A stretch of 64,000 nucleotides of DNA from Candidatus Poribacteria bacterium (GTDB taxonomy: Bacteria > Poribacteria > WGA-4E > PCPOR2b): NCBI GenBank assembly GCA_022822005.1, contig JAJECO010000040.1:90-64089 (forward strand), written 5' to 3'. Shown piece by piece: positions 891-64,000 of this stretch. A program made the translations under genes and the position numbers. The notes below the pieces were generated by a model, which was not told where the DNA came from, ran no database searches, and was given only the letters and a program-made list of their open reading frames with translations. The stretch's first letter is position 1, and each line of letters starts with the position of its first letter.

Positions 891-3800
891 TTAATCCGTA
901 ATACTGACCTCCGGCAAACCCTCCACAATCTCCACCGTCTCCAAACTGACCGTGATTACCTTCCCGATTAGCTTAACGATGTACTGCGGATCATCCTCGC
1001 GGTTCGGGTCGTTGACGATCCCACTCCGCTTGTCTGTCTTGACGCGATACTGATCTATCACCCATTCCAGCGCTGACCGATTCCCAAGCCGATAATCAAA
1101 CACCTTTGGGGGTATTCCGTCGAGGGTCAGGAAATCGTTGTATGTTATCCCCGTTTTGTCTTTGGACAGTCTCATCTTTTCGACACGCCAATCGAGGGGT
1201 TGTCCCGGTGTTTCGACCTTCTTGATCGGATATTCGTCCGCGTCTTCATAGCCGATGTGGATTTCTCCCAACCTTCTCCCCGCTTTGGCAAATCCCCAAA
1301 AGTCCGGTGTGTATGGCAGGTGCGGTAGGTCCCGCTTGAGGTTCGCCTGATACCGCCTCCGATAGACGGGGTGATGCAGGAGGCCATAGACATAATGGAA
1401 GATATCCCACTTGGTGATTGCCTCATCTCGGTAATGGGACCGGAATTGTGCTAACGCCCAATCGGTGATGTTCTCCCGGCGGTTTGTGCCATCTTCGTCG
1501 TAGGTGTAGAAGGGGAAACATTGATTTTTTTCAAACGCTAAATCTAAGGTAGGAATCCTGTTTGTTATAAGACAACCAAATCCTTTTCTATTACCAACAC
1601 CAGCAATACAAATTACACGATTTTCCATTTCGGTACTAGGCGTAGGAAAAATTCGATACTGTTGATAACGTTCCTCATTCCAGAAGTTATCGAAATAGAG
1701 GTATTTCTGACTGAACGGACGATACAACGCGGTGCGAAAGTGTGAATCTTCATAATTGCTCAATTCCAGTTTTTTCAATGATGCCTTAACCTGACGAGTC
1801 CATTTGATACATGGGTCATCTGTATCAATGATACTTTCAACGGGGATGTTGGGATCATGCCTTTTCCTGCGGTCAACGGTGCTGTTGTATATTTCGATAA
1901 ATGTGTGAACACGTTCTTGTAGCAACTCAAGATTAAACGAGTAAGCCAAAATATCCCTATTCGTGACAACCCCCAAAGAGTAGAGACGAAAAATCGCTTC
2001 TTTGTCTCCATCCTTCACCGCTTTTCTTGTCTTGCTGCCCATCGGGATAAAAGTCTCAAATTCCGGGTGAAGACCTTCTGTCAACCATGTGTAACGTGCG
2101 TCGGGTTGAACGGGCTGCCAATTTATATTGCTAAGGTGTTCGCGTTCACTCAGAAAATCGAATTTTTGTTTTTTGTTCCATAGATCATCAGTGCGATAGT
2201 AAAAAATACGGGTAGGAACAGAATTACCATCGTTTGTAGTAGGGCGATTTATCGCTCGTCCGGTTTTCACAAATAGGTTGATACTCACACCGACCCGTAT
2301 CCCGAACACATTGGCATCCGAGGCTTTTAATCCTTTCCGCGCATTCCCACCCAGGTCCAGAATGTAAATCGCGTCAAAGTCGCCTGCGAGGTGTTTCCGC
2401 ATCCCATCAAACGCCACATCGCCGAGAAAGCTATTGTTCGTTACAAAGGCAACAATCCCTTCTTGTCCAATGCGATCCGATGCCCACCGAATCGCCTTTA
2501 TGTATGGGTCGTAGAGTTTATTTCTGAGCGTCGCTGTGGAGTCTTTTGCATAGGTATCTTTAACCCGTGCATCCATCGTTGGATATTTCCGATTCTTATT
2601 GTTATCATTTTCGTTGATCTGGCCGGCGTTGTAAGGGGGATTGCCGATGACGACAAACATCGGGGCTTTTTTCTGGCCCGCAACGCGGCGGGTGGTTTCA
2701 GGATCAAACAACGACAACTGCCGATCTTCCGCCAACTCAAATGTATCGACGAGGCAGATCCCCTCAAATGGCTGATACCCACCCGTCGCCTCGAAAAACT
2801 CGTGTTCGATATTCAGAGACGCGATGTAGTACGGGAGCAGCATCACCTCATTGCAGTGGAGTTCGGACTGATACTTGTCGGCTAACGCAGTCTTCTGAAT
2901 CTCACGCATTATCCGCACGATAAAATTGCCGGTCCCCACAAACGGATCAATGATATGCACACCGGAATCGGAGAGCGATCGGTTGAATTCTGCCCCTAAA
3001 ATCTCCTCAACACTTCTCACCATGAAATCGACAATCGGCTGCGGCGTGTAGACGATACCGTGTGTGTCCGCAACCTCCACCGAAAAGCCTTGAAAAAACT
3101 GCTCGTAAACGGTGTTGAGAAATCCCTGCTTTTGGGAGAAGTCGCTGATCGTTCTCGCTGTGTCCTCAATGGCAATGTAGAAGCGATCGAGGCTACGGAG
3201 AAAACCGTCACGGCTAAACGACTGGGAGGTGAGCGCGTCTATCACCTTCTCAATCTCATTGGCAATAACATTGCGGCGGGTGAAGTCGGGGTTATCGAAA
3301 ACGGTGCGGAAAATCCGTTCGGTCAAGAGGTGTTGGATCAGCATCTCCTCAACCGCTGCTTCGGAGAGGTCGGGGTTGATTGACTGGCAGCACTTCTCAT
3401 GAAAAGCCCTAAAGGCAGCCGCAAACCGGCGGTTTGTCCCCCGTTCCCTTTCGATGAGTCCTACCAAGCCTTGCCCAAGCGCGGGCACCCTGTCTTTGAA
3501 CTGAGAGACCGCTTCTTCCCATTCGAGGTATGCTTGCGGACGATGGGAAAAGAAGGTTTGGAGTGTCTCGATCAGTTGCGTAGCGTCGGTTAGATCCGCC
3601 TCAAGTGCGGGTTGGTCATTCTGCCAAAGGACAGCGCGTTGTGGAGTTTGAAAGAGGATGTTGTCACGCGGGTAACCCGCCTCAAATTTGTGCTGGACTT
3701 CAACGGGTAGGTTGTCGTGGATATCCTTCGCCTCCCAATAGACGGGAGGCCGTTGGAAACGGTCGATCAACGCGCCGTCAATCACAATTCGCCTGTCTTG

Positions 3801-3983
3801 ACGGTTGATCGGATACTCGGGCACAAGGATCCAATTTAACTTTCGTCCGTAGTGTTGGAGTAGGGATTGGAACGCCGATCGGACAGCGGTTTCGTTTGTA
3901 AAGCCGCGCTGCTCAAATTGATCGAGCGCGCCGTAGTAGTCTTTGATGGGTTGATCTGTGGGTTTGAGATTAAGGACCGTCAT
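891..3983 (-). CDS. Type IIG / MmeI-family restriction-modification enzyme. Single polypeptide: N-terminal PD-ExK endonuclease, N6-adenine methyltransferase, and C-terminal target-recognition region.
   Basis: 1030 aa. N-terminus has D...EAK (VIDGALIDRFQRPPVYWEAKD) like the MmeI nuclease motif. NPPY motif present (VIGNPPYNAGQ), with the AdoMet-binding region upstream. Size matches MmeI-like enzymes. Confidence 0.75.
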   Translation of the reverse strand: MTVLNLKPTDQPIKDYYGALDQFEQRGFTNETAVRSAFQSLLQHYGRKLNWILVPEYPINRQDRRIVIDGALIDRFQRPPVYWEAKDIHDNLPVEVQHKFEAGYPRDNILFQTPQRAVLWQNDQPALEADLTDATQLIETLQTFFSHRPQAYLEWEEAVSQFKDRVPALGQGLVGLIERERGTNRRFAAAFRAFHEKCCQSINPDLSEAAVEEMLIQHLLTERIFRTVFDNPDFTRRNVIANEIEKVIDALTSQSFSRDGFLRSLDRFYIAIEDTARTISDFSQKQGFLNTVYEQFFQGFSVEVADTHGIVYTPQPIVDFMVRSVEEILGAEFNRSLSDSGVHIIDPFVGTGNFIVRIMREIQKTALADKYQSELHCNEVMLLPYYIASLNIEHEFFEATGGYQPFEGICLVDTFELAEDRQLSLFDPETTRRVAGQKKAPMFVVIGNPPYNAGQINENDNNKNRKYPTMDARVKDTYAKDSTATLRNKLYDPYIKAIRWASDRIGQEGIVAFVTNNSFLGDVAFDGMRKHLAGDFDAIYILDLGGNARKGLKASDANVFGIRVGVSINLFVKTGRAINRPTTNDGNSVPTRIFYYRTDDLWNKKQKFDFLSEREHLSNINWQPVQPDARYTWLTEGLHPEFETFIPMGSKTRKAVKDGDKEAIFRLYSLGVVTNRDILAYSFNLELLQERVHTFIEIYNSTVDRRKRHDPNIPVESIIDTDDPCIKWTRQVKASLKKLELSNYEDSHFRTALYRPFSQKYLYFDNFWNEERYQQYRIFPTPSTEMENRVICIAGVGNRKGFGCLITNRIPTLDLAFEKNQCFPFYTYDEDGTNRRENITDWALAQFRSHYRDEAITKWDIFHYVYGLLHHPVYRRRYQANLKRDLPHLPYTPDFWGFAKAGRRLGEIHIGYEDADEYPIKKVETPGQPLDWRVEKMRLSKDKTGITYNDFLTLDGIPPKVFDYRLGNRSALEWVIDQYRVKTDKRSGIVNDPNREDDPQYIVKLIGKVITVSLETVEIVEGLPEVSITD

Positions 3984-4001: not shown

Positions 4002-4799
4002 TTATCCGACCCGTGCACTCAAGCCGCCATCAACGGGCAGAAGCACCCCTGTAATATACCGTGCATCGTCGGACGCCAGGAACGCAGCCGCAGCCGCGAC
4101 ATCCCAGCCGGAGCCCATCTTTTGAAGAAGCGGCACATCCTCGTCCCGTTCCTTACGGATAACGTCGTGGCTTACCCCTCGTTCTGCTACCCGTCGTTCA
4201 ATCGCCATCGGTGTATCCATCAGACCGGGCAAAATCGCATTCACGCGCACCCCATATTCCGCGTTTTCGATGGCGAGGTTCTGTGTCATGGCGTTGATTG
4301 CGGCCTTGCTGGTTTTGTACGCGAGCATGGTCGGTCGCGTACAGAGCGACGCTGTCGAAGAGATATTGATAATCACCCCCGATCCTTGGGCGCGCATCAC
4401 GGGCAGGACATGCTTGATGGTGAGAAACATGCCTTTGAGGTTGATATCCATCAATAGTTCCCAATTCGCCTCAGTCACATCAGCCGTGTCAGCATCACCC
4501 GCTGCGATCCCGACGTTATTATGCAAAACATCTATCCGCCCGTAGCGCGAAACACAGGTTTCGATAATTGCCCGACAATCCTCCTCAACAGTTATGTCCG
4601 CACCGAAAACTGAGGCTTCACCGTCAGTTTCTTCTATCATCCGGGCGGTATCTTCCGCTGAATCGGGTCGCTTGTCAACAAGAAGCACCCGCGCCCCCTT
4701 CTTTGCGAAACAAATCGCGGTTGCCCTGCCGTTCCCGATGGTTTCTCCCGGCGTCTGACCGGCACCAACGACGATGGCGACTTTACCACTGAGCGACAT
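4002..4799 (-). CDS. SDR family NAD(P)-dependent oxidoreductase.
   Basis: MSLSGKVAIVVGAGQTPGETIG Rossmann motif and YxxxK region. Start moved to the internal ATG at 4799, which has an AAGGAGGAG SD. Sits 18 nt upstream of the RM gene. Confidence 0.85.
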   Translation of the reverse strand: MSLSGKVAIVVGAGQTPGETIGNGRATAICFAKKGARVLLVDKRPDSAEDTARMIEETDGEASVFGADITVEEDCRAIIETCVSRYGRIDVLHNNVGIAAGDADTADVTEANWELLMDINLKGMFLTIKHVLPVMRAQGSGVIINISSTASLCTRPTMLAYKTSKAAINAMTQNLAIENAEYGVRVNAILPGLMDTPMAIERRVAERGVSHDVIRKERDEDVPLLQKMGSGWDVAAAAAFLASDDARYITGVLLPVDGGLSARVG

Positions 4800-4815
4800 A
4801 TACAGTCTCCTTCCT

Positions 4816-4915
4816 TCGCTCCAGAGAAGCGATATGTCTGTAGAATCCCAACGCGTCCAAGCCACGCGCTCCAGTTTTGAATCCCGATTTATCGGGGAGG
4901 AGCGCAATGTGTATA
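4816..4915. repeat. Family A repeat copy (hairpin + AATGTG modules). The second hairpin loop carries a nested family B CCCGAT-TTAT-CGGG hairpin.
   Basis: CGCTCCAGAGAAGCGATATGTCTGTAGAA ... GGAGCGCAATGTG. Lies 17 nt upstream of the SDR start. Confidence 0.55.
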
Positions 4916-4990: not shown

Positions 4991-5611
4991 TTAAGGCTCC
5001 GTGCGGTTTGGGCCTGCCTCAGTACCAACGAACGGTGCACTCTCACCGACGGGCACCGGCACCTCAAATACATTCAGCGTCATTGACACGAGTGTGTAGT
5101 AACCGAGCAGGATCACCAACTCCGTAACCCCCGCCTCATCGAGCAGTTCAACCGCCTCATCGTATAGATGGTCTGACACACGATGTTGGTCGAGCAATTC
5201 ACGGGCAAAGTTATAGACCACCATCTCGGTTGGATTGGATAACTCTGGGGCTGTTTCCGCCTTGACGCTTTCGATTATCCGATCGTCCAAGCCTTCACTT
5301 CTTGCAATTCTCTCATGCGCCCACCATTCATACTGTGCCTTCCATTTGGCAGCAACGATCAGGATTGCGAGCTCTCGCAGCTGCGGCGGGAGGGCACTTT
5401 CAAAACGGACGGTCTCGCCGAGTCGTTGTGCTGCATCGCCCAACACCGGACTCCTGAGCCACGGATTGAATGGACCGCTCATCCCGCCTTCTGAGTTGAG
5501 GAGATCTTCGGGAGCCCGTCCCTCGCCACGCTTGCCGCCGGTTATACTTTCGAAGAGGCGTTGTTGCGCTTCGGTAAAGTTTTCGGGTGTGATGTATGAT
5601 ATTCGACTCAT
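4991..5611 (-). CDS. Carboxymuconolactone decarboxylase (AhpD-like) family protein.
   Basis: 206 aa, all-alpha. CMD-family-like core (ELAILIVAAKWKAQYEWWAHERIA), but it lacks the usual Cys pair. Confidence 0.6.
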   Translation of the reverse strand: MSRISYITPENFTEAQQRLFESITGGKRGEGRAPEDLLNSEGGMSGPFNPWLRSPVLGDAAQRLGETVRFESALPPQLRELAILIVAAKWKAQYEWWAHERIARSEGLDDRIIESVKAETAPELSNPTEMVVYNFARELLDQHRVSDHLYDEAVELLDEAGVTELVILLGYYTLVSMTLNVFEVPVPVGESAPFVGTEAGPNRTEP

Positions 5612-5852
5612 TTCTCAATTCCTTTTTGCTCACATTTATAGCACATAACCATCTGAATAATTTCGATGAACTGATGCGAAGAACGGCGGAATAACTCTAT
5701 CACGCTCCCTGTGCGGAGTCAAGCGCAAAGTGGCAAGGGCACCCGCAAGGGGTGCCCCTACAGAGATCCGTTTCTCAGTGTATCGTTCTCTAAGTTTTTC
5801 ATGGTTTCCCACCTGCATTTGTGATAACATCTGAGATGATAAAAAAATCTAA

Positions 5853-5866
5853 TGCGTAAGACCTGT
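5853..5866 (+). repeat. Solo terminal repeat of the family F MITE (TGCGTAAGACCTG).
   Basis: Matches the right TIR GTGCGTAAGTCCT of the complete elements at 17911-18067 and 61654-61804. Confidence 0.4.
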
Positions 5867-6254: not shown

Positions 6255-7313
6255 ATGAAAACTTACCGAGTGGCGATTGTGGGACTGGGGCGTATGGGCA
6301 GTACACTTGACCAGTCGATTGCGTCTGCATCGCATGCAAGCGAACGGCTTGAAGTGGTAGCAGGGGCAGAGACAATGCCAGAACGACGGACAGCGTTCCA
6401 AGAGAAATGGGGCGTTGAAACAGTTTATGAAGACTACCAAGAGATGATTGAGAAGGAGCGGCCGGATATGGTGGGGATATGTACGACAGCGACCGGTTTG
6501 CCCAAACCGGGCAATCGTGCCCCATCAACATCGTTCCGGGACGACGCACACGCGGATATGGCGGTCTATGCGGCGAATGCCGGTGTGCCAATGCTCTTTG
6601 TGGAGAAGGCGATATCCTGTTCCGTGGAAAAGGCTGATGAAGTCCTTGAAGCCTGCCGCAAACACGGTACTATACTCAACACCGGCGTACTGAGACGGTT
6701 CAGCGGACGATATAAACGGATACGGGAGATGATCGCACGGGGCGATATCGGTGAACCGCAATCAGCGGTGGTCTATGGTGCTGCCAGCTTGATGCACGTA
6801 CACATCCACTGGATGGACACCGTCTCCTACCTGCTGGGCGATCCAGAGATTGCAGCGGTACGGGGGGATCTACTGCCCAGAAGTATAAAGGTTAAAGACA
6901 ACCGACTTGAGGAAGACCCGCAGGGACTTTTTCAGATCGCCTTCGCCAACGGAATCGAGGCATGGTCAGTGCCGGACGGGGGACGGGAGTATGAGATAGT
7001 CGGAACAGAAGGGACTATCCGATCGATGTGGGATGGCGCAGCGGTAACTTTCCGGAAGCTGAATGGGGCAGATGATTGGCCCCTACAATGGGAGGGAGAG
7101 ACATTTCCAGAGGAAACTCCGGTCAGCACAGTTGTTACCTGTTTAGAAGATTTGGTAGAGTCGCATGAATCGGGACGGCAGTCAATTGGCAATATTGAGG
7201 TCACACATCCCATCACAGAGGCGTGTATCACTGTGGCGGAAAGCCATCGACAGGGCGGTCGGTGGGTTGATTTACCGATGCAGAATCGGGACTTGTATGT
7301 GTTTCATGTGTAG
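6255..7313 (+). CDS. Gfo/Idh/MocA family oxidoreductase.
   Basis: MKTYRVAIVGLGRMGS N-terminal Rossmann motif. 352 aa. GAAGGAGAA SD. Confidence 0.85.
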   Translation: MKTYRVAIVGLGRMGSTLDQSIASASHASERLEVVAGAETMPERRTAFQEKWGVETVYEDYQEMIEKERPDMVGICTTATGLPKPGNRAPSTSFRDDAHADMAVYAANAGVPMLFVEKAISCSVEKADEVLEACRKHGTILNTGVLRRFSGRYKRIREMIARGDIGEPQSAVVYGAASLMHVHIHWMDTVSYLLGDPEIAAVRGDLLPRSIKVKDNRLEEDPQGLFQIAFANGIEAWSVPDGGREYEIVGTEGTIRSMWDGAAVTFRKLNGADDWPLQWEGETFPEETPVSTVVTCLEDLVESHESGRQSIGNIEVTHPITEACITVAESHRQGGRWVDLPMQNRDLYVFHV

Positions 7314-17910: not shown

Positions 17911-18067
17911 AGGACTTACGCAGCTAAACGGTTAAAGCCCTGTAGTTCGGCGATTCATCGCCGTTAGACACCGGTCCCAACGCCCGATGAATCCCCGATA
18001 AATCCCCGATACATCGGGACAGGCGGGATTAAGAAACGGGCAACTACAATCGAAGTGCGTAAGTCCT
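17911..18067. mobile_element. Family F MITE-like element: 157 bp with 13-bp terminal inverted repeats AGGACTTACGCAG / GTGCGTAAGTCCT and subterminal CTGTAGTT / AACTACAA. It carries family B hairpins inside.
   Basis: TIRs read directly. A second complete copy is at 61654-61804. No coding capacity. Confidence 0.65.
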
Positions 18068-55215: not shown

Positions 55216-56046
55216 ATGACCCAACAAGAACAACAAACCTTCTTTGAAAAAGAGGGCTACCTTGTCGTAGAGAATCTACTATCGCCAGAAGAATTGGTGG
55301 AATGTCAGGCTGAAATTCTACGCCTGCACAAACTTGCCGCCGAACTGGAAGCGAAGGGCGAAAATGGTCACTTTCAACGTGAGCCTTACGCTAAAAACGA
55401 GGCACAGGAAATGACGACCCACGGTGTCGCGGATGATAGGCTTCCGGTGCTAAGAAAGGCTGAAAACACCCGCCAATATTCGGACGTATTTCGTCGCCTC
55501 TCAGTCCATCCGAAACTAATCCAAGTTGTGCAAAAGCTTCTTGGACCCGATCTCTTGCTGTTCAGAAGTACACTGATGTTCAAGCCGGCATTCCACGGCT
55601 CCGCACACGGCATCCATCAGGATTCCGCGTATTGGCCCATGGAGCCGCCGAAGTTGGTAACGGTGAGCATTGCACTCAACGACGCCACACCTGAAAATGG
55701 ATGTTTTCAGGTGATTCCCCAGAGCCACAAATGGGGGCTTCAGTCTTGGGGACATATCGCTCGCGAACAGGATGAATCTCTGACAGACCATGAGGATCGC
55801 GATTTTTCAGGACAGATTGAGGTTCCCCTTTCTGCGGGGAGTGCGCTATTCTTCCACAGTCTCATGGCGCACGGCTCTGGCCCGAATCGCTCACCAAATC
55901 CGAGGAACACCGCACTTTACGCATACTTCTCGCCGCAGGTCCGTTATGTGCCACGCAACGGCAAGCCGGAACGGAAGTCGTTCCCAGTCGCCGCCGGGCT
56001 TGGTGGCAAAGAGGAATTGACACTCGTTGCCGAAAGTGCTGAGTAG
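55216..56046 (+). CDS. Phytanoyl-CoA dioxygenase (PhyH) family Fe(II)/2OG oxygenase.
   Basis: HQDSAYWP ... FFHSLMAHGSGPN (HxD...H triad). 276 aa. AAGGAGA SD. Confidence 0.8.
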   Translation: MTQQEQQTFFEKEGYLVVENLLSPEELVECQAEILRLHKLAAELEAKGENGHFQREPYAKNEAQEMTTHGVADDRLPVLRKAENTRQYSDVFRRLSVHPKLIQVVQKLLGPDLLLFRSTLMFKPAFHGSAHGIHQDSAYWPMEPPKLVTVSIALNDATPENGCFQVIPQSHKWGLQSWGHIAREQDESLTDHEDRDFSGQIEVPLSAGSALFFHSLMAHGSGPNRSPNPRNTALYAYFSPQVRYVPRNGKPERKSFPVAAGLGGKEELTLVAESAE

Positions 56047-58537: not shown

Positions 58538-58735
58538 TAAAATAACCTGATTTAACCAATGGTGCTAGTTTGCGACTGTTGATAGCGTGAAACGTGAAGA
58601 GAAGAATAGAACACAGAGACGCTAGGAAATTCCCTTAAAAAACTTTGCGCCGTTGCGTCATTGCGTTAAGTATTCTTCATGTACTAATGAATCAATGAAC
58701 CATGTATTTAGGGGATGAAGCTTGGAGATATAACC

Positions 58736-59578
58736 ATGACATCAACACAACTCAACGACCAACAGATGGCATTTTTTGATCCGTTTGGGTTCCTGTCCTT
58801 TCCGGGATTGTTGGCTGATTGCGCCGATAAAATAATCGACGAGTTTGAAGCCATCTGGAATTCCCACGGTGGTGGACACCACGGCGCGCTGCACGACGGG
58901 GTGAACCGTTCTTGCATCTTTCCATTCCCGGATCGAAGTGAATATCTCAGTTCCATACTGGATGACCCACGTATTCACGACATAGCCGCCAGCATTTGTG
59001 GCGATGACTTTAACTATACAAGTGGCGACGGTAATTTCTACGCAGGTGACACCCGTTGGCACTCTGACGGGTACGACGGGCACCGACTGATGAGTATCAA
59101 GATCGCTTTCTACCTCGATCCGCTGACCCGCGACACCGGCGCGCTCCGCATTATCCCCGGTAGTCACCGTGTTGGTGAACCTTACGCCGATACGATTGAA
59201 CGCGATATCCGTGAGAGCGGGCAGATTTGGGGGATGTCCGGTCCTGAGGTTCCTGCACTTATTTTGGAGACAAATCCCGGCGATATTGTCGTTTTCAACC
59301 ACAACCTCAAACACGCTGCGTTTGGCGGTTCTGAGCGACGACGGATGTACACAATGAACTTCTGCCGTCGCTACCCGGAAGAGCGACTTGGCGAGTTGCG
59401 CGATAAACTGGGCAAAGAGGCACGGTTCTGGATTGATCGTATCCACGGCGAAGCGATGATCCGCACAGCGGGACCGGAGCGGATGGTACACTTGGAGCAG
59501 GTGATGGAGAACGACACCCATCTCGCTGAATTACATCAGGAACTAAGAGAGACAATGACAGAACCGTCACGTGGATGA
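58736..59578 (+). CDS. PhyH family Fe(II)/2OG dioxygenase, tandem copy 1.
   Basis: WHSDGYDGHR ... NHNLKHAAF (HxD...H). GGAGATA SD. Confidence 0.8.
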   Translation: MTSTQLNDQQMAFFDPFGFLSFPGLLADCADKIIDEFEAIWNSHGGGHHGALHDGVNRSCIFPFPDRSEYLSSILDDPRIHDIAASICGDDFNYTSGDGNFYAGDTRWHSDGYDGHRLMSIKIAFYLDPLTRDTGALRIIPGSHRVGEPYADTIERDIRESGQIWGMSGPEVPALILETNPGDIVVFNHNLKHAAFGGSERRRMYTMNFCRRYPEERLGELRDKLGKEARFWIDRIHGEAMIRTAGPERMVHLEQVMENDTHLAELHQELRETMTEPSRG

Positions 59579-59734: not shown

Positions 59735-60577
59735 ATGGAGTCAACACGACTTAACGACCAACAGATGGCATTTTTTGATACGTTTGGGTTCCTGTCCTTT
59801 CCGGGATTATTGGCTGACTGCGCCGATAAGATTATTGACGAGTTTGAAGCTGTCTGGGCTGTCCACGGGGGCGGGCATAACGGTGCGCTGCACGACGGGG
59901 TGAATCGTTCTTGCATCTGCCCGTTCCCTGATCTCAGTGAGTACCTCAGTTCACTACTGGACGATCCGCGCATCCACGACATCGCTGCCAGTATTTGTGG
60001 GGATGACTTTAACTATACAAGCGGCGACGGCAATCTCTACGCCGGGGACACCCGTTGGCACTCCGACGGTTACAATGGAAACCGGCTGATGGATATCAAG
60101 ATCCCTTTCTACCTCGATCCGCTCACCCGCGATACGGGTGCACTTCGTGTGATCCCCGGCAGTCACCGCGTTGGCGAGCCTTATGCCGACACGATTGAAC
60201 GCGATATTCGTGAGAGCGGCCAGATCTGGGGGATGTCCGGTCCTGAAGTCCCGGCACTCATTCTGGAGACGAACCCCGGCGATATTGTCGTCTTCAACCA
60301 AAACCTCAAACACGCTGCGTTTGGCGGCTCTGAGCGACGCCGGATGTACACAATGAACTTCTGCTCTCGTTACCCCGAGGAACGGCTTGGGGAATTGCGT
60401 GACATGTTCGCTAAAGAAGCACGGTTCTGGATTGATCGCATCCACGGCGAAGCGATGATACGCACCGCAGGACCCGAGCGGATGGTACACTTGGAGCAGG
60501 TGATGGAAAATGACACCCACCTCGTTGAATTACATCGGGAACTAAGACAGACGATGACAGAGCCGTCACGTGGATGA
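59735..60577 (+). CDS. PhyH family Fe(II)/2OG dioxygenase, tandem copy 2 (about 90% identical to copy 1).
   Basis: Near-identical DNA over about 800 bp to 58736..59578. GGAGACGC SD. Confidence 0.8.
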   Translation: MESTRLNDQQMAFFDTFGFLSFPGLLADCADKIIDEFEAVWAVHGGGHNGALHDGVNRSCICPFPDLSEYLSSLLDDPRIHDIAASICGDDFNYTSGDGNLYAGDTRWHSDGYNGNRLMDIKIPFYLDPLTRDTGALRVIPGSHRVGEPYADTIERDIRESGQIWGMSGPEVPALILETNPGDIVVFNQNLKHAAFGGSERRRMYTMNFCSRYPEERLGELRDMFAKEARFWIDRIHGEAMIRTAGPERMVHLEQVMENDTHLVELHRELRQTMTEPSRG

Positions 60578-60633
60578 TGGATCAATTTGATATGATTACT
60601 CTAAACGTTGGTCAATATTCGGAGGAGTTAAAA

Positions 60634-60816
60634 ATGAAATTTCTTGTTAGAAGATACTACTCAGGTTTTTGTACTGATGAAGTTGAAGCAGAAGATGAGG
60701 ATGCTGCTCTTAATATTGCTAGAAATCTGCCCATAGATGAAGGCGAAATTCTTTCGACCTTAGAGGATTGGCGGTACGCCGATGAGGTCGAAGTTGCTGA
60801 AGATGATGAAAACTAG
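60634..60816 (+). CDS. Small, extremely acidic hypothetical protein (60 aa, net charge about -14) overlapping the start of the HNH nuclease gene.
   Basis: GGAGGAG SD 6 nt before ATG 60634. MKFLVRRYYSGFCTDEVEAEDEDAALNIARNLPIDEGEILSTLEDWRYADEVEVAEDDEN. Sits at the AT-rich island boundary. Confidence 0.45.
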   Translation: MKFLVRRYYSGFCTDEVEAEDEDAALNIARNLPIDEGEILSTLEDWRYADEVEVAEDDEN

Positions 60817-61651
60817 AAGCAAAATCAATTATAATTATCAGACAGTCAAAATCTCCCAAAGTCGAATAGATAGAGGGTTAATAGCTCTCCCGCGATCTCT
60901 AACGCGATGGTTCCCTGATCATAATACAACTATTCGAGTCTATTTGGGAGATTCCCTCATTCCGGAGGTTAAAAACTATACCTCACATACTGGCTCTACG
61001 AATGAATCCCGAATTGGGGGACTGGTGGATTGGTTTGATACAAATAATATCAGAGATGGTGATGAAATAGTTATCCAACTGATAGATGAGCAAGAGCGTA
61101 TTTATAGATTGATAGCCGAAAACGATTTCATCATAAAAACAAAAGAGTTACAAGATGGCTTTGACCGTTCTCAAGATGAAGATGCAGCTTTGGAAGGTGT
61201 TGTTCGACTGGCAAATTGGACGGAATTGGATAATAGCAAAGTCGTGCTTAATGAATATCGTCGATTAGTAGACACGATGCCAGTTAGAAGAAGAGGATAT
61301 GTTAGTAGACAATCGAACCGGACGAGAGAACGAACTCCTCACAATTTAAGAGTTCTATTAGGGAAGATTTATCAAGGTCATTGCCAAGTATGTGACTTTA
61401 CATTTTTAAAAACAGATGATACGCCTTATTTTGAAATTCATCACATAGATCGAGCAGAAGGTCATCAACCACAGAATCTGATAGTGGTCTGTGCTAATTG
61501 TCATAGACAGTTTGAATTTGCGAATGTTGACCATACATTTAATAATGAGGGGTGGCTTATAAAAGTCAATTTCAATCAAAGTTTTTATGACATAAATCAA
61601 GTTTTATTGAATTCCAGAATAGAAGATTTTATGAAACAGACACATATATGA
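60806..61651 (+). CDS. HNH endonuclease-domain protein with a ~200-aa N-terminal (possibly beta-barrel DNA-binding) domain. No adjacent methyltransferase.
   Basis: C-terminal CQVCDF...FEIHHIDRAEGHQPQNLIVVCANCH (HNH with zinc-ribbon Cys pairs). AT-rich. Start ambiguous among ATG 60782, 60803 and 60806, all overlapping the acidic ORF. Confidence 0.7.
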   Translation: MKTRSKINYNYQTVKISQSRIDRGLIALPRSLTRWFPDHNTTIRVYLGDSLIPEVKNYTSHTGSTNESRIGGLVDWFDTNNIRDGDEIVIQLIDEQERIYRLIAENDFIIKTKELQDGFDRSQDEDAALEGVVRLANWTELDNSKVVLNEYRRLVDTMPVRRRGYVSRQSNRTRERTPHNLRVLLGKIYQGHCQVCDFTFLKTDDTPYFEIHHIDRAEGHQPQNLIVVCANCHRQFEFANVDHTFNNEGWLIKVNFNQSFYDINQVLLNSRIEDFMKQTHI

Positions 61652-61653
61652 TT

Positions 61654-61804
61654 AGGACTTACACAGTTGAACGCTGAAGTTTTGTAGTCCGATGTTTCAG
61701 TGCCAATGCGGGGCAAGATGCTCCGCCTACGATGGGTATGGATGCTGCCCATGCCCCGATCGCCTGATGAATCAGGCTACTACAATATGAGGTGCGTAAG
61801 TCCT
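61654..61804. mobile_element. Family F MITE-like element (151 bp) with TIRs AGGACTTACACAG / GTGCGTAAGTCCT, inserted 2 nt after the HNH gene stop.
   Basis: TIRs and subterminal TGTAGTCC / GGCTACTACA inverted repeats read directly. The internal GCGGGGCAAG...GCCTACGAT module is also at 42733-42830. Confidence 0.65.
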
Positions 61805-62054
61805 GTGATATAACTAGATTGTTTGACTGCCACGCATAAGTCAAAGTATAATAGACAGAATAGCAAGAAAATGAGCAAACACGCAACAGACGCTCTCCCC
61901 GCAACAAGGGAGACCAAAGGGGAGTTAAAGTTTGAGATGAACATTCCGCAGCCCAAAGAGTATGTAGACCCAACCCTTATTTACGGTAAAGGATACTTTT
62001 AATCAAATACCCAAGACATAATAAGCTGTCGTAGGCAACAACGGGTACTCATCT

Positions 62055-62393
62055 ATGCTTACCGTACACCCCCGAGAACTACAAATCTATCGAACTCAAA
62101 ACGGGCGGGAACCTTTCACCGAATGGTTAGAATCAATCAGCGATCAAAGGACACAAAACCGAATTCAAAGACGAGTTGACCGGCTCGAAGAAGGCAATTT
62201 TGGTGATCACAAATCTGTTGGTGAGGGTGTTTTTGAGCTACGCCTCTACTTCGGTGCGGACTATCGAGTCTATTTTGGTGAAATAAATAATACGGTTCTC
62301 CTTCTGCTCTGTGGTGGTGACAAGTCATCACAGACACGGGACATTGAACGCGCAAAAACCTATTGGAGCGAATACAAGGAGGCATACCGATGA
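62055..62393 (+). CDS. RelE/ParE-superfamily toxin of the HigB-like 'addiction module killer protein' type.
   Basis: REPFTEWLESISDQRTQNRIQRRVDRLEEGNFGDHKSVGEGVFELRLYFGADYRVYFGEINNTVLLLLCGGDKSSQTRDIERAK matches the family consensus. Confidence 0.8.
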   Translation: MLTVHPRELQIYRTQNGREPFTEWLESISDQRTQNRIQRRVDRLEEGNFGDHKSVGEGVFELRLYFGADYRVYFGEINNTVLLLLCGGDKSSQTRDIERAKTYWSEYKEAYR

Positions 62394-62716
62394 GAGAAAT
62401 AAGGACATGGCGCGAATACCTAATTGAAAAGTTTGCTGACCGGGAGAAGGCGATGGGCTATCTCCAGGTTGCACTGGAAGAATACCAAGGTGACAATGAC
62501 ACCGCTACATTTATGCGGGCCCTCCAAACTGTGGTTGAAGCACAGGGCGGGATTCATGAACTTGCCAATCAAATCCATACACCACCACAAACCGCATTGA
62601 AAATGCTATCAAGCGACAACACACCAACGCTCGATACGCTCGGAACTATTTTGAATGCGCTTGGCTGGCGGCTTTCGATTGAACCGTTAGAGGATGCAAT
62701 ACCTAGCCTTGAGTAG
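62390..62716 (+). CDS. Cognate HigA-type antitoxin ('addiction module antidote protein', HTH).
   Basis: ATG 62390 overlaps the toxin TGA (ATGA), with AAGGAGG SD. REYLIEKFADREKAMGYLQVALEEY...TLGTILNALGWRLSIEP is typical for the family. Confidence 0.8.
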   Translation: MREIRTWREYLIEKFADREKAMGYLQVALEEYQGDNDTATFMRALQTVVEAQGGIHELANQIHTPPQTALKMLSSDNTPTLDTLGTILNALGWRLSIEPLEDAIPSLE

Positions 62717-62737
62717 TTTACAAAAATGAGGATAAAA

Positions 62738-64000
62738 ATGAAAAGAAACCATAATTCACTGGATTACAAGATTCAGAAAATTAGAACAGGCATAAGTATC
62801 TACCCCTACTTCTTGCTCATTGTGGCTTTTGCAGCGTTGGTAGGCATCTGGGATGCTTCAGCTGCTATCACTGGGAAGATTTCGGGTGTAGTCACCGCTG
62901 AAGCAACGCAGGCGCCGCTGGCAGATGTAACAGTAACAATTGTCGGAACCAGTAGCACCGCCACCACGAACGACGCAGGCTATTATGTCATCGTCAATAT
63001 CCCGCCGGGCGGTTATGATGTGAAAGTAGAACTCGGTGACTATGTTTCGGAGACTGTGGCGGGCGCGAAGGTGTTCGCTGGGCTTACTACAACTCTGAAC
63101 TTTGCTTTAAAGACTGCCGATGTTGTCACGCTCGAAGAGGTAACGGTAACAGCTGTCAAGCCGCTAATTAAGCGGGATGTTACCCAAACAACACGAATCA
63201 TCGAAGCGGAGGACATCGAAGCGATGCCGCGCGATACCGTGAATGGAATTCTCCAAACGCAGGCTGGCGTAGCGGTAAATAATGCGTCCGGTGCGGTCCA
63301 CATTCGCGGCGGTCGTTCGATGGAGATTAAATATTTGATCGACGGGCTGCCGGTCAATGACCTAATTGGCAGCGGCTTAGGTGTGAATATCAGCACCAAC
63401 GCCCTCGAACAGATGGAAATTATCACGGGTGGATTCAATGCAGAACACGGCGATGCACAATCCGGTGTGATTAACCTCATCACGAAAGCTGGCGCTCAGA
63501 AGTTTTCTGGCCGAATTCGGTATCGCGTTGGTCAGTGGGCAACACACCACGGCGATCCGGTATACGGTCCTTGGTTCGATCCCGATAACAACTTCCGCCC
63601 TGTAGCACTTGAACCTTTCCGGGGTATCTTCCTCGGCGAGCCTTACGACTATCAAGCCCCCTATCGCGGAGATACTACTACGGTCGAAGAGTTAGCAAAT
63701 CGAGAGGGCGATGGACAGGTCGTTTTCACGGAGATTGCCCCCGGCGTATATGCGGACAGGACAGAAAACCCGCTGTCGCCGGTTATTGATCCCACTACAG
63801 GTGAACCTCAAGTGGATGCTGCGGGCGAGGTTATTATGGCACGCCAACCGTATCAAGACACCGATGGCACCCTCATCGACTATGAAAAGAAGCAGGTAAC
63901 GCTGTTAGATGGCTATATTGTGGACCTGAATCAATACAGCGGTCTGTTCAACGATACAAAAACGTACGATCTGAGTCCGAGCCATATTGGGGAACTTGCA
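62738..64000 (+). CDS. TonB-dependent receptor with an N-terminal carboxypeptidase-regulatory-like domain. 3'-partial (runs off the window).
   Basis: Signal peptide; GKISGVVTAEATQAPLADVTVTIVGTSSTATTNDAGYYVIVNIPPGGYDVKV (CarbopepD_reg-like). The plug domain follows (EAEDIEAMPRDTVNGILQTQAGV...GGRSMEIKYLIDGLPVND). Frame open to position 64000. Confidence 0.85.
   Translation, partial: MKRNHNSLDYKIQKIRTGISIYPYFLLIVAFAALVGIWDASAAITGKISGVVTAEATQAPLADVTVTIVGTSSTATTNDAGYYVIVNIPPGGYDVKVELGDYVSETVAGAKVFAGLTTTLNFALKTADVVTLEEVTVTAVKPLIKRDVTQTTRIIEAEDIEAMPRDTVNGILQTQAGVAVNNASGAVHIRGGRSMEIKYLIDGLPVNDLIGSGLGVNISTNALEQMEIITGGFNAEHGDAQSGVINLITKAGAQKFSGRIRYRVGQWATHHGDPVYGPWFDPDNNFRPVALEPFRGIFLGEPYDYQAPYRGDTTTVEELANREGDGQVVFTEIAPGVYADRTENPLSPVIDPTTGEPQVDAAGEVIMARQPYQDTDGTLIDYEKKQVTLLDGYIVDLNQYSGLFNDTKTYDLSPSHIGELA

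Follow-up and report, generated by a model that had tools for sequence, protein, structure and literature searches.

A candidate B3-HNH endonuclease and its small acidic partner in Candidatus Poribacteria: a possible methylase-less remnant of a restriction-modification cassette

The 64,000-nucleotide (nt) stretch of DNA analyzed here (the window; contig JAJECO010000040.1 of assembly GCA_022822005.1, a Candidatus Poribacteria bacterium) carries near its right end an AT-rich islet, the two-gene core of which (60634-61651) encodes a small acidic protein and, overlapping it, an HNH nuclease with a predicted B3-type DNA-binding domain. Positions are those of the window, and genes lie on the forward strand unless marked otherwise. 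The combination of B3 and HNH domains is new within the known restriction-type enzymes. We give somewhat better than an even chance to the reading that the core is a methylase-less remnant of a nuclease module associated with restriction-modification (R-M) systems, and that selection retains it as an independent nuclease coupled to a small partner. The ancestor would have been a four-gene R-M-type cassette, the upstream nuclease and the methyltransferase of which were lost in this lineage, and the remaining pair, which purifying selection keeps in place, would go back to an ancestor shared by at least four Poribacteria genomes. The B3 pseudobarrel would read the DNA sequence and the zinc-stabilized HNH site would cut, with the acidic protein being translationally coupled to the endonuclease. 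The role of the pair is most plausibly defense against foreign DNA.

The nuclease gene (60782-61651; ATG at 60782, TGA at 61649-61651) encodes 289 amino acids (aa), and an alternative ATG at 60806 would give a 281-aa form, as in many homologues. An initial annotation of this DNA, made from the letters alone, had pointed out a clear C-terminal HNH motif and a possible DNA-binding beta-barrel in front of it, and both descriptions stand. The motif matches Pfam HNH (PF01844) at aa 201-243 with 29.1 bits against a cut-off of 21.4. Its beta-beta-alpha-metal core with a CxxC...CxxC zinc site (61340-61528) contains C201, C204, H220, H221, N232, C237, N239, C240, and H241, all of them invariant in the 40 homologues examined. 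The beta-rich C-terminal extension that follows in the AlphaFold2 (AF2) model (aa 250-289; 61529-61648) is conserved as well, with W258, L259, V262, and F264 invariant in the family alignment.

The N-terminal part was recognized by its predicted structure. Residues 1-195 have no match in Pfam (E ≤ 1), NCBIfam, or PADLOC; specifically, no sequence match of the N-domain to Pfam B3 (PF02362) or EcoRII-N (PF09217) was found, and the family profile reaches no B3 protein among the PDB sequences. The AF2 model, built with 42 sequences, has a predicted local distance difference test score (pLDDT) of 89.7 and a predicted template modeling (TM) score of 0.86, with pLDDT values of 89-95 in the B3 region. 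In a Foldseek search against the PDB the top 13 matches to it are all B3 domains, each with a probability of 1.00. The best match is plant FUS3 (6j9b; E = 3.5e-5, TM-score on the target 0.67, root mean square deviation 3.6 Å over 99 columns), and further plant matches, DNA-bound like FUS3, are LEC2, VRN1, VAL1, and NGA1. Matches to the B3 domains of prokaryotic restriction enzymes comprise the N-domain of LlaJI.R1 (6c5d; E = 3.7e-3), BfiI (3zi5 and 2c1l), and UbaLAI (5o63). The N-terminal domain is thus predicted to be a B3 DNA-binding pseudobarrel (aa 8-112; 60803-61117), a fold that was on the list of options of the initial annotation, and it has two invariant arginines, R28 and R77. According to the AF2 secondary structure and pLDDT, it is joined to the HNH part by a three-helix linker (aa 113-165; 61118-61276) and, after it, a low-confidence loop (aa 174-181).

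The predicted layout is that of a restriction-type enzyme with its reading and cutting domains apart. A B3-type pseudobarrel reader with a separate nuclease domain, encoded in an R-M cluster, is likewise found in BfiI, UbaLAI, EcoRII, and NgoAVII. However, the catalytic domains of the known B3-bearing restriction enzymes are of the phospholipase-D (BfiI, NgoAVII) or PD-(D/E)XK (UbaLAI, EcoRII) type instead of HNH, these four enzymes have no sequence-level similarity to the B3-HNH protein, and the methyltransferase is missing in most members of the B3-HNH family. We found no earlier B3-HNH fusion in Pfam, NCBIfam, PADLOC, PHROGs, the PDB sequences, or the searchable literature. The family itself counts at least 322 full-length homologues (281-293 aa) conserved along their entire length, with identities of about 80-90% within Candidatus Poribacteria and 40-58% to members from Nitrospirota/Thermodesulfovibrionales, Planctomycetota, Chloroflexota, Ignavibacteria, WOR-3, Dadabacteria, and Thermoplasmata archaea. 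Searches of phages, viral contigs, and plasmids returned no relatives, or matches to the HNH motif only.

Assignments of the nuclease to ZorE or IscB were considered and rejected. The PADLOC scan proposed with the initial annotation gave ZorE and mREase_IV matches to the HNH motif and none on the N-domain or the acidic open reading frame (ORF). The ZorE matches (E = 6e-5) span only aa 200-243 and the locus has no ZorA- or ZorB-like neighbors, which rules out Zorya type II; the mREase_IV match (E = 3.3e-4) covers only aa 197-248, that is, the HNH motif again, and the NCBIfam match to IscB is confined to the same motif.

The acidic protein (60634-60816; 60 aa, of which 19 are Asp or Glu) is preceded by a Shine-Dalgarno sequence, GGAGGAG (60621-60627), that is kept in 5/5 aligned Poribacteria copies, and its gene overlaps the start of the nuclease gene by 35 nt (ATG 60782) or 11 nt (ATG 60806), in agreement with what had been noted before. 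Conservation in related loci had been named as a check on this ORF, and it extends to distant phyla, where copies with 37-63% identity (the one from Thermodesulfovibrionales reads MKYIVRKYFSGFCSYEVDAADEE...) occupy the same position upstream of, and overlapping, the HNH gene. A profile search gave 250 homologues and an exhaustive search 169 representative clusters, from several phyla; nearly all of them stand alone, with lengths of 55-70 aa, and none carries an annotation. The acidic ORF is thus a real gene, and its ratio of non-synonymous to synonymous substitution rates (dN/dS) among Poribacteria is 0-0.24. In the AF2 model of the protein (pLDDT 79) a beta-hairpin and a helix are followed by a C-terminal strand. 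The protein has no match in Pfam, PHROG, or PADLOC, and Foldseek gives no significant structural neighbor, the best being YkzG and T7 Gp2 at E = 1-4.

The surroundings of the nuclease in its relatives link it to R-M systems. A total of 48 loci were fetched from reference genomes and their neighboring ORFs were clustered (loci are cited by L number). The full cassette, found intact in other phyla, runs in the order PD-(D/E)XK nuclease, small ORF, B3-HNH, and N4/N6 methyltransferase with an SPPY motif. The first slot is held either by a close homologue of the crystallized R.ThaI (PF15514, E = 1.5e-81; 3ndh, E = 6e-72) or by a 202-aa protein, and complete cassettes always carry one of the two in the same operon. 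The 202-aa protein has no match in Pfam, NCBIfam, PADLOC, PHROGs, or the PDB sequences, and its assignment to PD-(D/E)XK is based solely on an invariant D...E-V-K pattern. The small ORF directly upstream of HNH is acidic or, equally often, an unrelated Cys-rich zinc (Zn)-ribbon ORF of about 75 aa, and the two types pair with the upstream nucleases, Zn-ribbon with the R.ThaI homologue and acidic with the 202-aa protein. The methyltransferase is of the PF01555 N6/N4 type, starts 0-138 nt downstream of HNH on the same strand, and matches the PADLOC MTase_II model at 1e-99 and 1e-107 in the cassettes. In the ThaI system the nuclease cleaves CG/CG, and the methyltransferase that goes with it modifies cytosine at N4 (PMC3025569). 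On this basis the cassettes are ThaI-type R-M systems that hold an additional pair, small ORF and B3-HNH, between R and M; the characterized ThaI system needs no such pair. A close R.ThaI homologue (3ndh) and an SPPY N4/N6 methyltransferase are present in complete cassettes, but the window has neither gene.

Within the cassettes, the pairwise identities of HNH and methyltransferase co-vary whatever the upstream module (Spearman 0.79), although, as the locus pairs are not phylogenetically independent, this amounts to a trend short of a formal test. For example, L029 and L039, with different upstream modules, share 70% identity in HNH and 85% in the methyltransferase, whereas L039 and L042, with the same upstream module, share only 43% and 60%. 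The co-variation suggests that HNH and methyltransferase form a co-inherited core, and that the module of nuclease and small ORF is exchanged. The initial annotation had held that the locus is not a classical type II R-M pair; this is right in that no methyltransferase is found at the locus, but the HNH family is R-M-linked, co-diverges with the SPPY methyltransferase, and shares an operon with an R.ThaI homologue.

Several individual loci add to the picture of the cassette. Acidic and Zn-ribbon ORFs stand in tandem ahead of one HNH gene in L019, L028, L059, and L060; L028 in addition retains pieces of the two upstream nucleases, and this suggests tandem stacking or recombination of the two upstream modules. 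A 145-aa metagenome protein (P0290) consists of the first ~70 residues of the 202-aa protein fused to a complete acidic protein; it is probably a deletion product and ties the two genes together. In L002 (3995-7635 and 9630-11701) a cassette of 202-aa, acidic, and HNH genes lies between trpB (PALP) and trpA, and about 3 kb downstream there are an unrelated D12 methyltransferase, a SacI-like restriction enzyme, and a metallo-beta-lactamase-fold protein matching the Anti-Pycsar Apyc1 family. On Nitrospirota and metagenome contigs L055-L058 (3000-4800) the acidic gene has no HNH gene beside it; it comes after a ribonucleotide reductase gene and is followed by a ribbon-helix-helix-PemK toxin-antitoxin pair with N6_N4 methyltransferases nearby; on some of these contigs nucleotidyltransferase (MNT-like) fragments precede it. 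Plasmid searches with the ThaI-like and methyltransferase queries gave no informative contexts.

Loss of the methyltransferase is common in the family. Among 36 loci with an intact HNH gene and at least 900 nt of downstream flank, the SPPY motif is kept in 6 (one with an internal stop), 5'-truncated remnants without SPPY are found in another 6, and no methyltransferase is seen in 24; a PF01555 methyltransferase lies 0-138 nt downstream in 12 of the 36, half of these having SPPY. ThaI-like genes are often truncated or frameshifted too, while HNH keeps its catalytic residues, and in L009 and L042 both nucleases are kept with the functional methyltransferase gone. The small partner is more persistent: among 41 loci with intact HNH and at least 400 nt of upstream flank it is present in 33 (14 acidic, 15 Zn-ribbon, 4 both), leaving 8 intact HNH genes without it. 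As for the window, scans bear out the earlier statement that no methyltransferase is nearby: none of the N6_N4 or D12 type lies near the locus, and the cassette family is absent from all 64 kb. The sole methyltransferase-like ORF of the window is far away on the reverse strand (891-3983, 1030 aa, adjoining another reverse-strand ORF at 4002-4907). It has a Type ISP C-terminal specificity domain (E = 6.9e-102), an ISP coupler, and N6_Mtase with an NPPY motif, and aligns to positions 749-1640 of the 1646-position PADLOC Type IIG model, the N-terminal nuclease/ATPase part being missing; possibly, this is a Type ISP (Type IIG) R-M enzyme that has been split or truncated.

What has been left at the locus is being maintained. 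The order PhyH, PhyH, acidic ORF, HNH, TonB receptor is shared by four Poribacteria genomes, and dN/dS of HNH among Poribacteria is 0.14-0.26 with dS close to that of the flanking genes. By these substitution rates, the pair of acidic and HNH genes is under purifying selection in Poribacteria. Three syntenic Planctomycetota loci have HNH with neither small partner nor methyltransferase, and HNH is strongly constrained there too, non-synonymous divergence (pN) being 0.18-0.20 against a synonymous divergence (pS) of 0.75-0.82. HNH is disrupted in two other Poribacteria copies, as expected for an accessory gene: L037 keeps aa 130-289 only, and in L007 (4753-6000) about 1.25 kb of unrelated DNA with a GC content of 0.44 splits the acidic ORF from HNH, the start codon of which is lost.

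The islet had been called AT-rich and compositionally foreign, and a comparison with its flanks agrees. The GC content of 500-nt bins over 60501-62000 is 0.38-0.41, against about 0.50 elsewhere in the window, a fall from about 0.50-0.57. For the core (60634-61651) it is 0.373 against a window average of 0.497 (z = -3.6), the lowest of all 1018-nt stretches in the window, and the GC content at third codon positions (GC3) of the two genes is 0.28-0.30 compared with 0.52-0.62 in the flanking PhyH, SDR, and M20 genes. In nearly all of 40 loci the HNH gene is likewise lower in GC than its flank. Because of the low GC and GC3 of the core and the low HNH GC in relatives, the best-supported reading is that the two-gene core was horizontally acquired.

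The B3 fold, taken together with the co-divergence of HNH and methyltransferase, argues for an ancestral type II-like role, and the complete cassettes of relatives suggest that the core is a methylase-less remnant and was not a lone sensor-nuclease from the outset. By analogy to type II enzymes, binding by the B3 domain would be sequence-specific and blocked by methylation. The host could then tolerate the enzyme by methylation encoded elsewhere, by low or nicking activity, or by restraint from the acidic partner, which would bind and modulate the nuclease; dependence on modification, as in type IV enzymes, is a further option. Several observations weigh against the remnant reading. A restriction enzyme that lacks its methyltransferase would be expected to kill its host, but most B3-HNH genes are found in just this state, and a classical type II role is therefore hard to sustain for most members. 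The cognate methyltransferase was not found within the 64-kb window, and the host sequence shows no avoidance of the ThaI site CGCG (231 sites, observed/expected ratio 0.74). The acidic protein is without structural neighbor and its type tracks the upstream nuclease and not the HNH clade; 8 HNH genes lack a small partner, and one Nitrospirota lineage has the acidic gene without HNH. Finally, nearly all loci were found by the HNH query, making the census frequencies conditional on the presence of HNH, and the dependence among locus pairs weakens the identity correlation. As a separate observation on short palindromes, GGCC (observed/expected ratio 0.30) and CTAG (0.27) are far rarer than other 4-nt palindromes in the host part of the window (1-60577 and 62740-64000), and several 6-nt palindromes, ATGCAT and CATATG among them, are also rare there.

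The persistence of the pair could be explained differently if, as the initial annotation proposed, the two genes form a nuclease-immunity or toxin-antitoxin-like addiction unit, in which the acidic protein, perhaps as a DNA mimic, neutralizes HNH, and loss of the pair frees the nuclease. This would explain why the pair has outlived the rest of the cassette, the small partner being kept in most loci while methyltransferase and upstream nuclease decay, and both genes being under purifying selection. It would also suit the tight translational coupling (the genes overlap by 1-35 nt at almost every locus) and the content of acidic residues, and the predicted beta-beta-alpha-beta topology is weakly like that of T7 Gp2 and YkzG, although not significantly so. 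Colicin E9-Im9 and other HNH-immunity pairs likewise have an HNH nuclease beside a small acidic protein. However, in the core the small gene comes first, the acidic protein has no sequence or fold similarity to Im, Foldseek gives no structural homology to known inhibitors, and co-occurrence is not obligatory: the HNH genes found without small partner are catalytically complete, 3 of the 8 are constrained across species, and the acidic gene stands without HNH in L055-L058. Moreover, unrelated acidic and Zn-ribbon proteins interchange, each following its own upstream nuclease instead of the HNH clade. On balance we regard an immunity pair as rather unlikely. Genes for the controller (C) proteins of type II R-M systems likewise directly precede and overlap the nuclease gene, as the small gene does, but C proteins are Xre-type helix-turn-helix (HTH) DNA binders, whereas the acidic protein has a net charge of about -13, a hairpin and a helix, and no Pfam HTH. 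It is also improbable, in our estimate, that the acidic or Zn-ribbon protein is a protein-level safety catch that binds B3-HNH and keeps it harmless to the host chromosome.

A second way to account for harmlessness is a type IV-like enzyme that cuts only DNA bearing foreign modifications and spares the unmodified host; alongside the ThaI-type system of a complete cassette, it would serve as a second line against phages that evade restriction by modifying their DNA. C5 methylation shields DNA from ThaI (PMC3025569), so that a complementary enzyme would make sense. In favor of this reading, persistence under selection without a methyltransferase is the norm in the family, and the layout is similar to that of EcoKMcrA (6ghc), to which the family profile comes nearest by HNH sequence within the PDB (E = 1.5e-6) and which shares the size (277-289 aa), an N-terminal reader, a helical linker, a C-terminal zinc HNH, and the lack of a methyltransferase; the weak mREase_IV match points the same way. 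The differences are in the reader, which is McrA and not B3 in EcoKMcrA, and in the operon, as relatives of B3-HNH are linked to a methyltransferase. The PADLOC and PDB matches are both restricted to the HNH motif, and the co-divergence of HNH with a methyltransferase of the same operon is the signature of a cognate R-M pair. In addition, being modeled as B3, the N-domain is none of the modified-base readers of type IV enzymes (SRA, PUA/EVE/YTH, DUF3427, McrA-N, DpnI winged helix). Where structures of restriction enzymes have been solved, the B3 domain contacts the major groove and reads unmodified sequence, and no B3 domain is known to read modified bases. The initial annotation had taken a sensor plus HNH as typical of type IV enzymes; B3 domains read sequence in type II enzymes and lend this no direct support, and we consider a type IV-like enzyme unlikely here.

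It is much less probable that B3-HNH is a nicking subunit, which recognizes the site and nicks one strand while the PD-(D/E)XK partner cuts the other. Heteromeric type IIS enzymes with a large recognition and nicking subunit and a small catalytic subunit do exist (BspD6I, BtsI), a small PD-(D/E)XK-type protein is always upstream in complete cassettes, and a lone nickase would be tolerated, which would account for the methylase-less state. On the other hand, HNH is found freely combined with either upstream nuclease, L009 and L042 retain both nucleases without a functional methyltransferase, and R.ThaI is a self-sufficient homodimer (PMC3025569). Least credible of all is that the locus is a remnant without function, or a selfish endonuclease of the homing type that has no cellular role: the decay of the cassette in many loci, the damaged copies in L007 and L037, and unrelated contexts such as trpB-trpA in L002 would fit it, but dN/dS well below 1, intact frames and motifs, and invariant catalytic residues rule out a pseudogene, there are neither a common insertion target nor viral relatives, and the roughly 5-6 bp that a B3 domain reads do not suffice for the specificity of homing.

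The remaining elements of the islet are ordinary. A miniature inverted-repeat transposable element (MITE) of 151 bp (61654-61804) starts 2 nt after the HNH stop, and a toxin-antitoxin pair follows, as the initial annotation had described; both assignments are borne out by repeats, empty sites, and family cut-offs. The terminal inverted repeats (TIRs) of the MITE, AGGACTTAC(A/G)CA at 61654 and 61804, are 12 nt long and have 7 matches in the window where 0.14 are expected. A second element (17911-18067) has the same AGGACTTACGCA TIRs (pair 17911/18067) and similar subterminal sequence with a different interior, and lone TIR-like matches at 5853, 37474, and 42693 may be decayed copies. The MITE is present in the window and in L004, L006, and L007, whereas L005 has a clean empty site at the orthologous position. 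In the window, L006, and L007, 56 nt separate the PhyH stop from the acidic ORF; this spacer has an insertion of ~200 nt in L005 (~5600-5850), ending ...GCGTAAGTCCT, a MITE of the same family, and one of ~120 nt in L004 (~5680-5850).

Downstream of the MITE there is a promoter-like TTGACT-18-TATAAT (61823-61852; 11/12 matches), which is kept in 5/5 Poribacteria loci and precedes the TonB-receptor gene in relatives. Between it and that gene the window has a RelE/ParE toxin of the HI1419 type (Gp49/HigB-like; 62055-62393, 112 aa; TIGR02683, E = 4.3e-35, 120 bits against a cut-off of 62.85; PF05973, E = 1.5e-4) and an HTH antitoxin of the HI1420 type (62390-62716, 108 aa; PF21716, 29.3 bits against a cut-off of 27; TIGR02684, E = 1.3e-5, 25.3 bits, below the cut-off of 53.7), with an ATGA overlap at 62390-62393. 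The pair (62055-62716) is an ordinary member of the HI1419/HI1420 (RelE/ParE-HTH, HigBA-like) type. Compared with L004-L007, the four closest relatives of the window, it is complete in the window only: L004, L006, and L007 have no toxin gene, and L005 (~7090-7270) has the antitoxin gene alone at this position, an orphan or the product of a toxin deletion. A single four-part system is ruled out because MITE and toxin-antitoxin pair are missing at orthologous loci, and the two are independent later insertions at the same hot spot. An Rfam scan of 60300-62900 gave no match.

The islet is bordered by host genes. On the left is the second of two tandem PhyH dioxygenase genes (59735-60577; Pfam PhyH, E = 5.8e-10; GC 0.55; GC3 0.62), syntenic in Poribacteria L004-L007, and on the right is a TonB-dependent receptor gene (62738-64000, running off the window) with 87% identity to its L005 orthologue; the L001 orthologue contains CarboxypepD_reg, Plug, and TonB_dep_Rec domains. 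Three PhyH-family genes lie within 5.5 kb (55216-56046, 58715-59578, 59735-60577), the last two being a tandem duplicate; in Poribacteria relatives this pair is conserved along with genes for an M20 peptidase and an SDR, and the genes may form a small catabolic cluster.

Members of the B3-HNH family occur widely among uncultured bacteria and also in some archaea. The history of the family is the opposite of textbook R-M decay, in that a catalytically complete nuclease outlives its methyltransferase and is held by purifying selection, and the tolerance of the host, once explained, would add a case to the poorly understood orphan restriction genes. A new HNH enzyme with sequence specificity might come from the locus, or else a small modulator of nucleases from an uncharacterized protein family. 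If the small proteins did prove to be a safety catch, a restriction enzyme would be inherited over the long term without a protective methyltransferase, which would mean control of restriction independent of methylation and an evolutionary bridge from R-M systems to nuclease-antitoxin modules.

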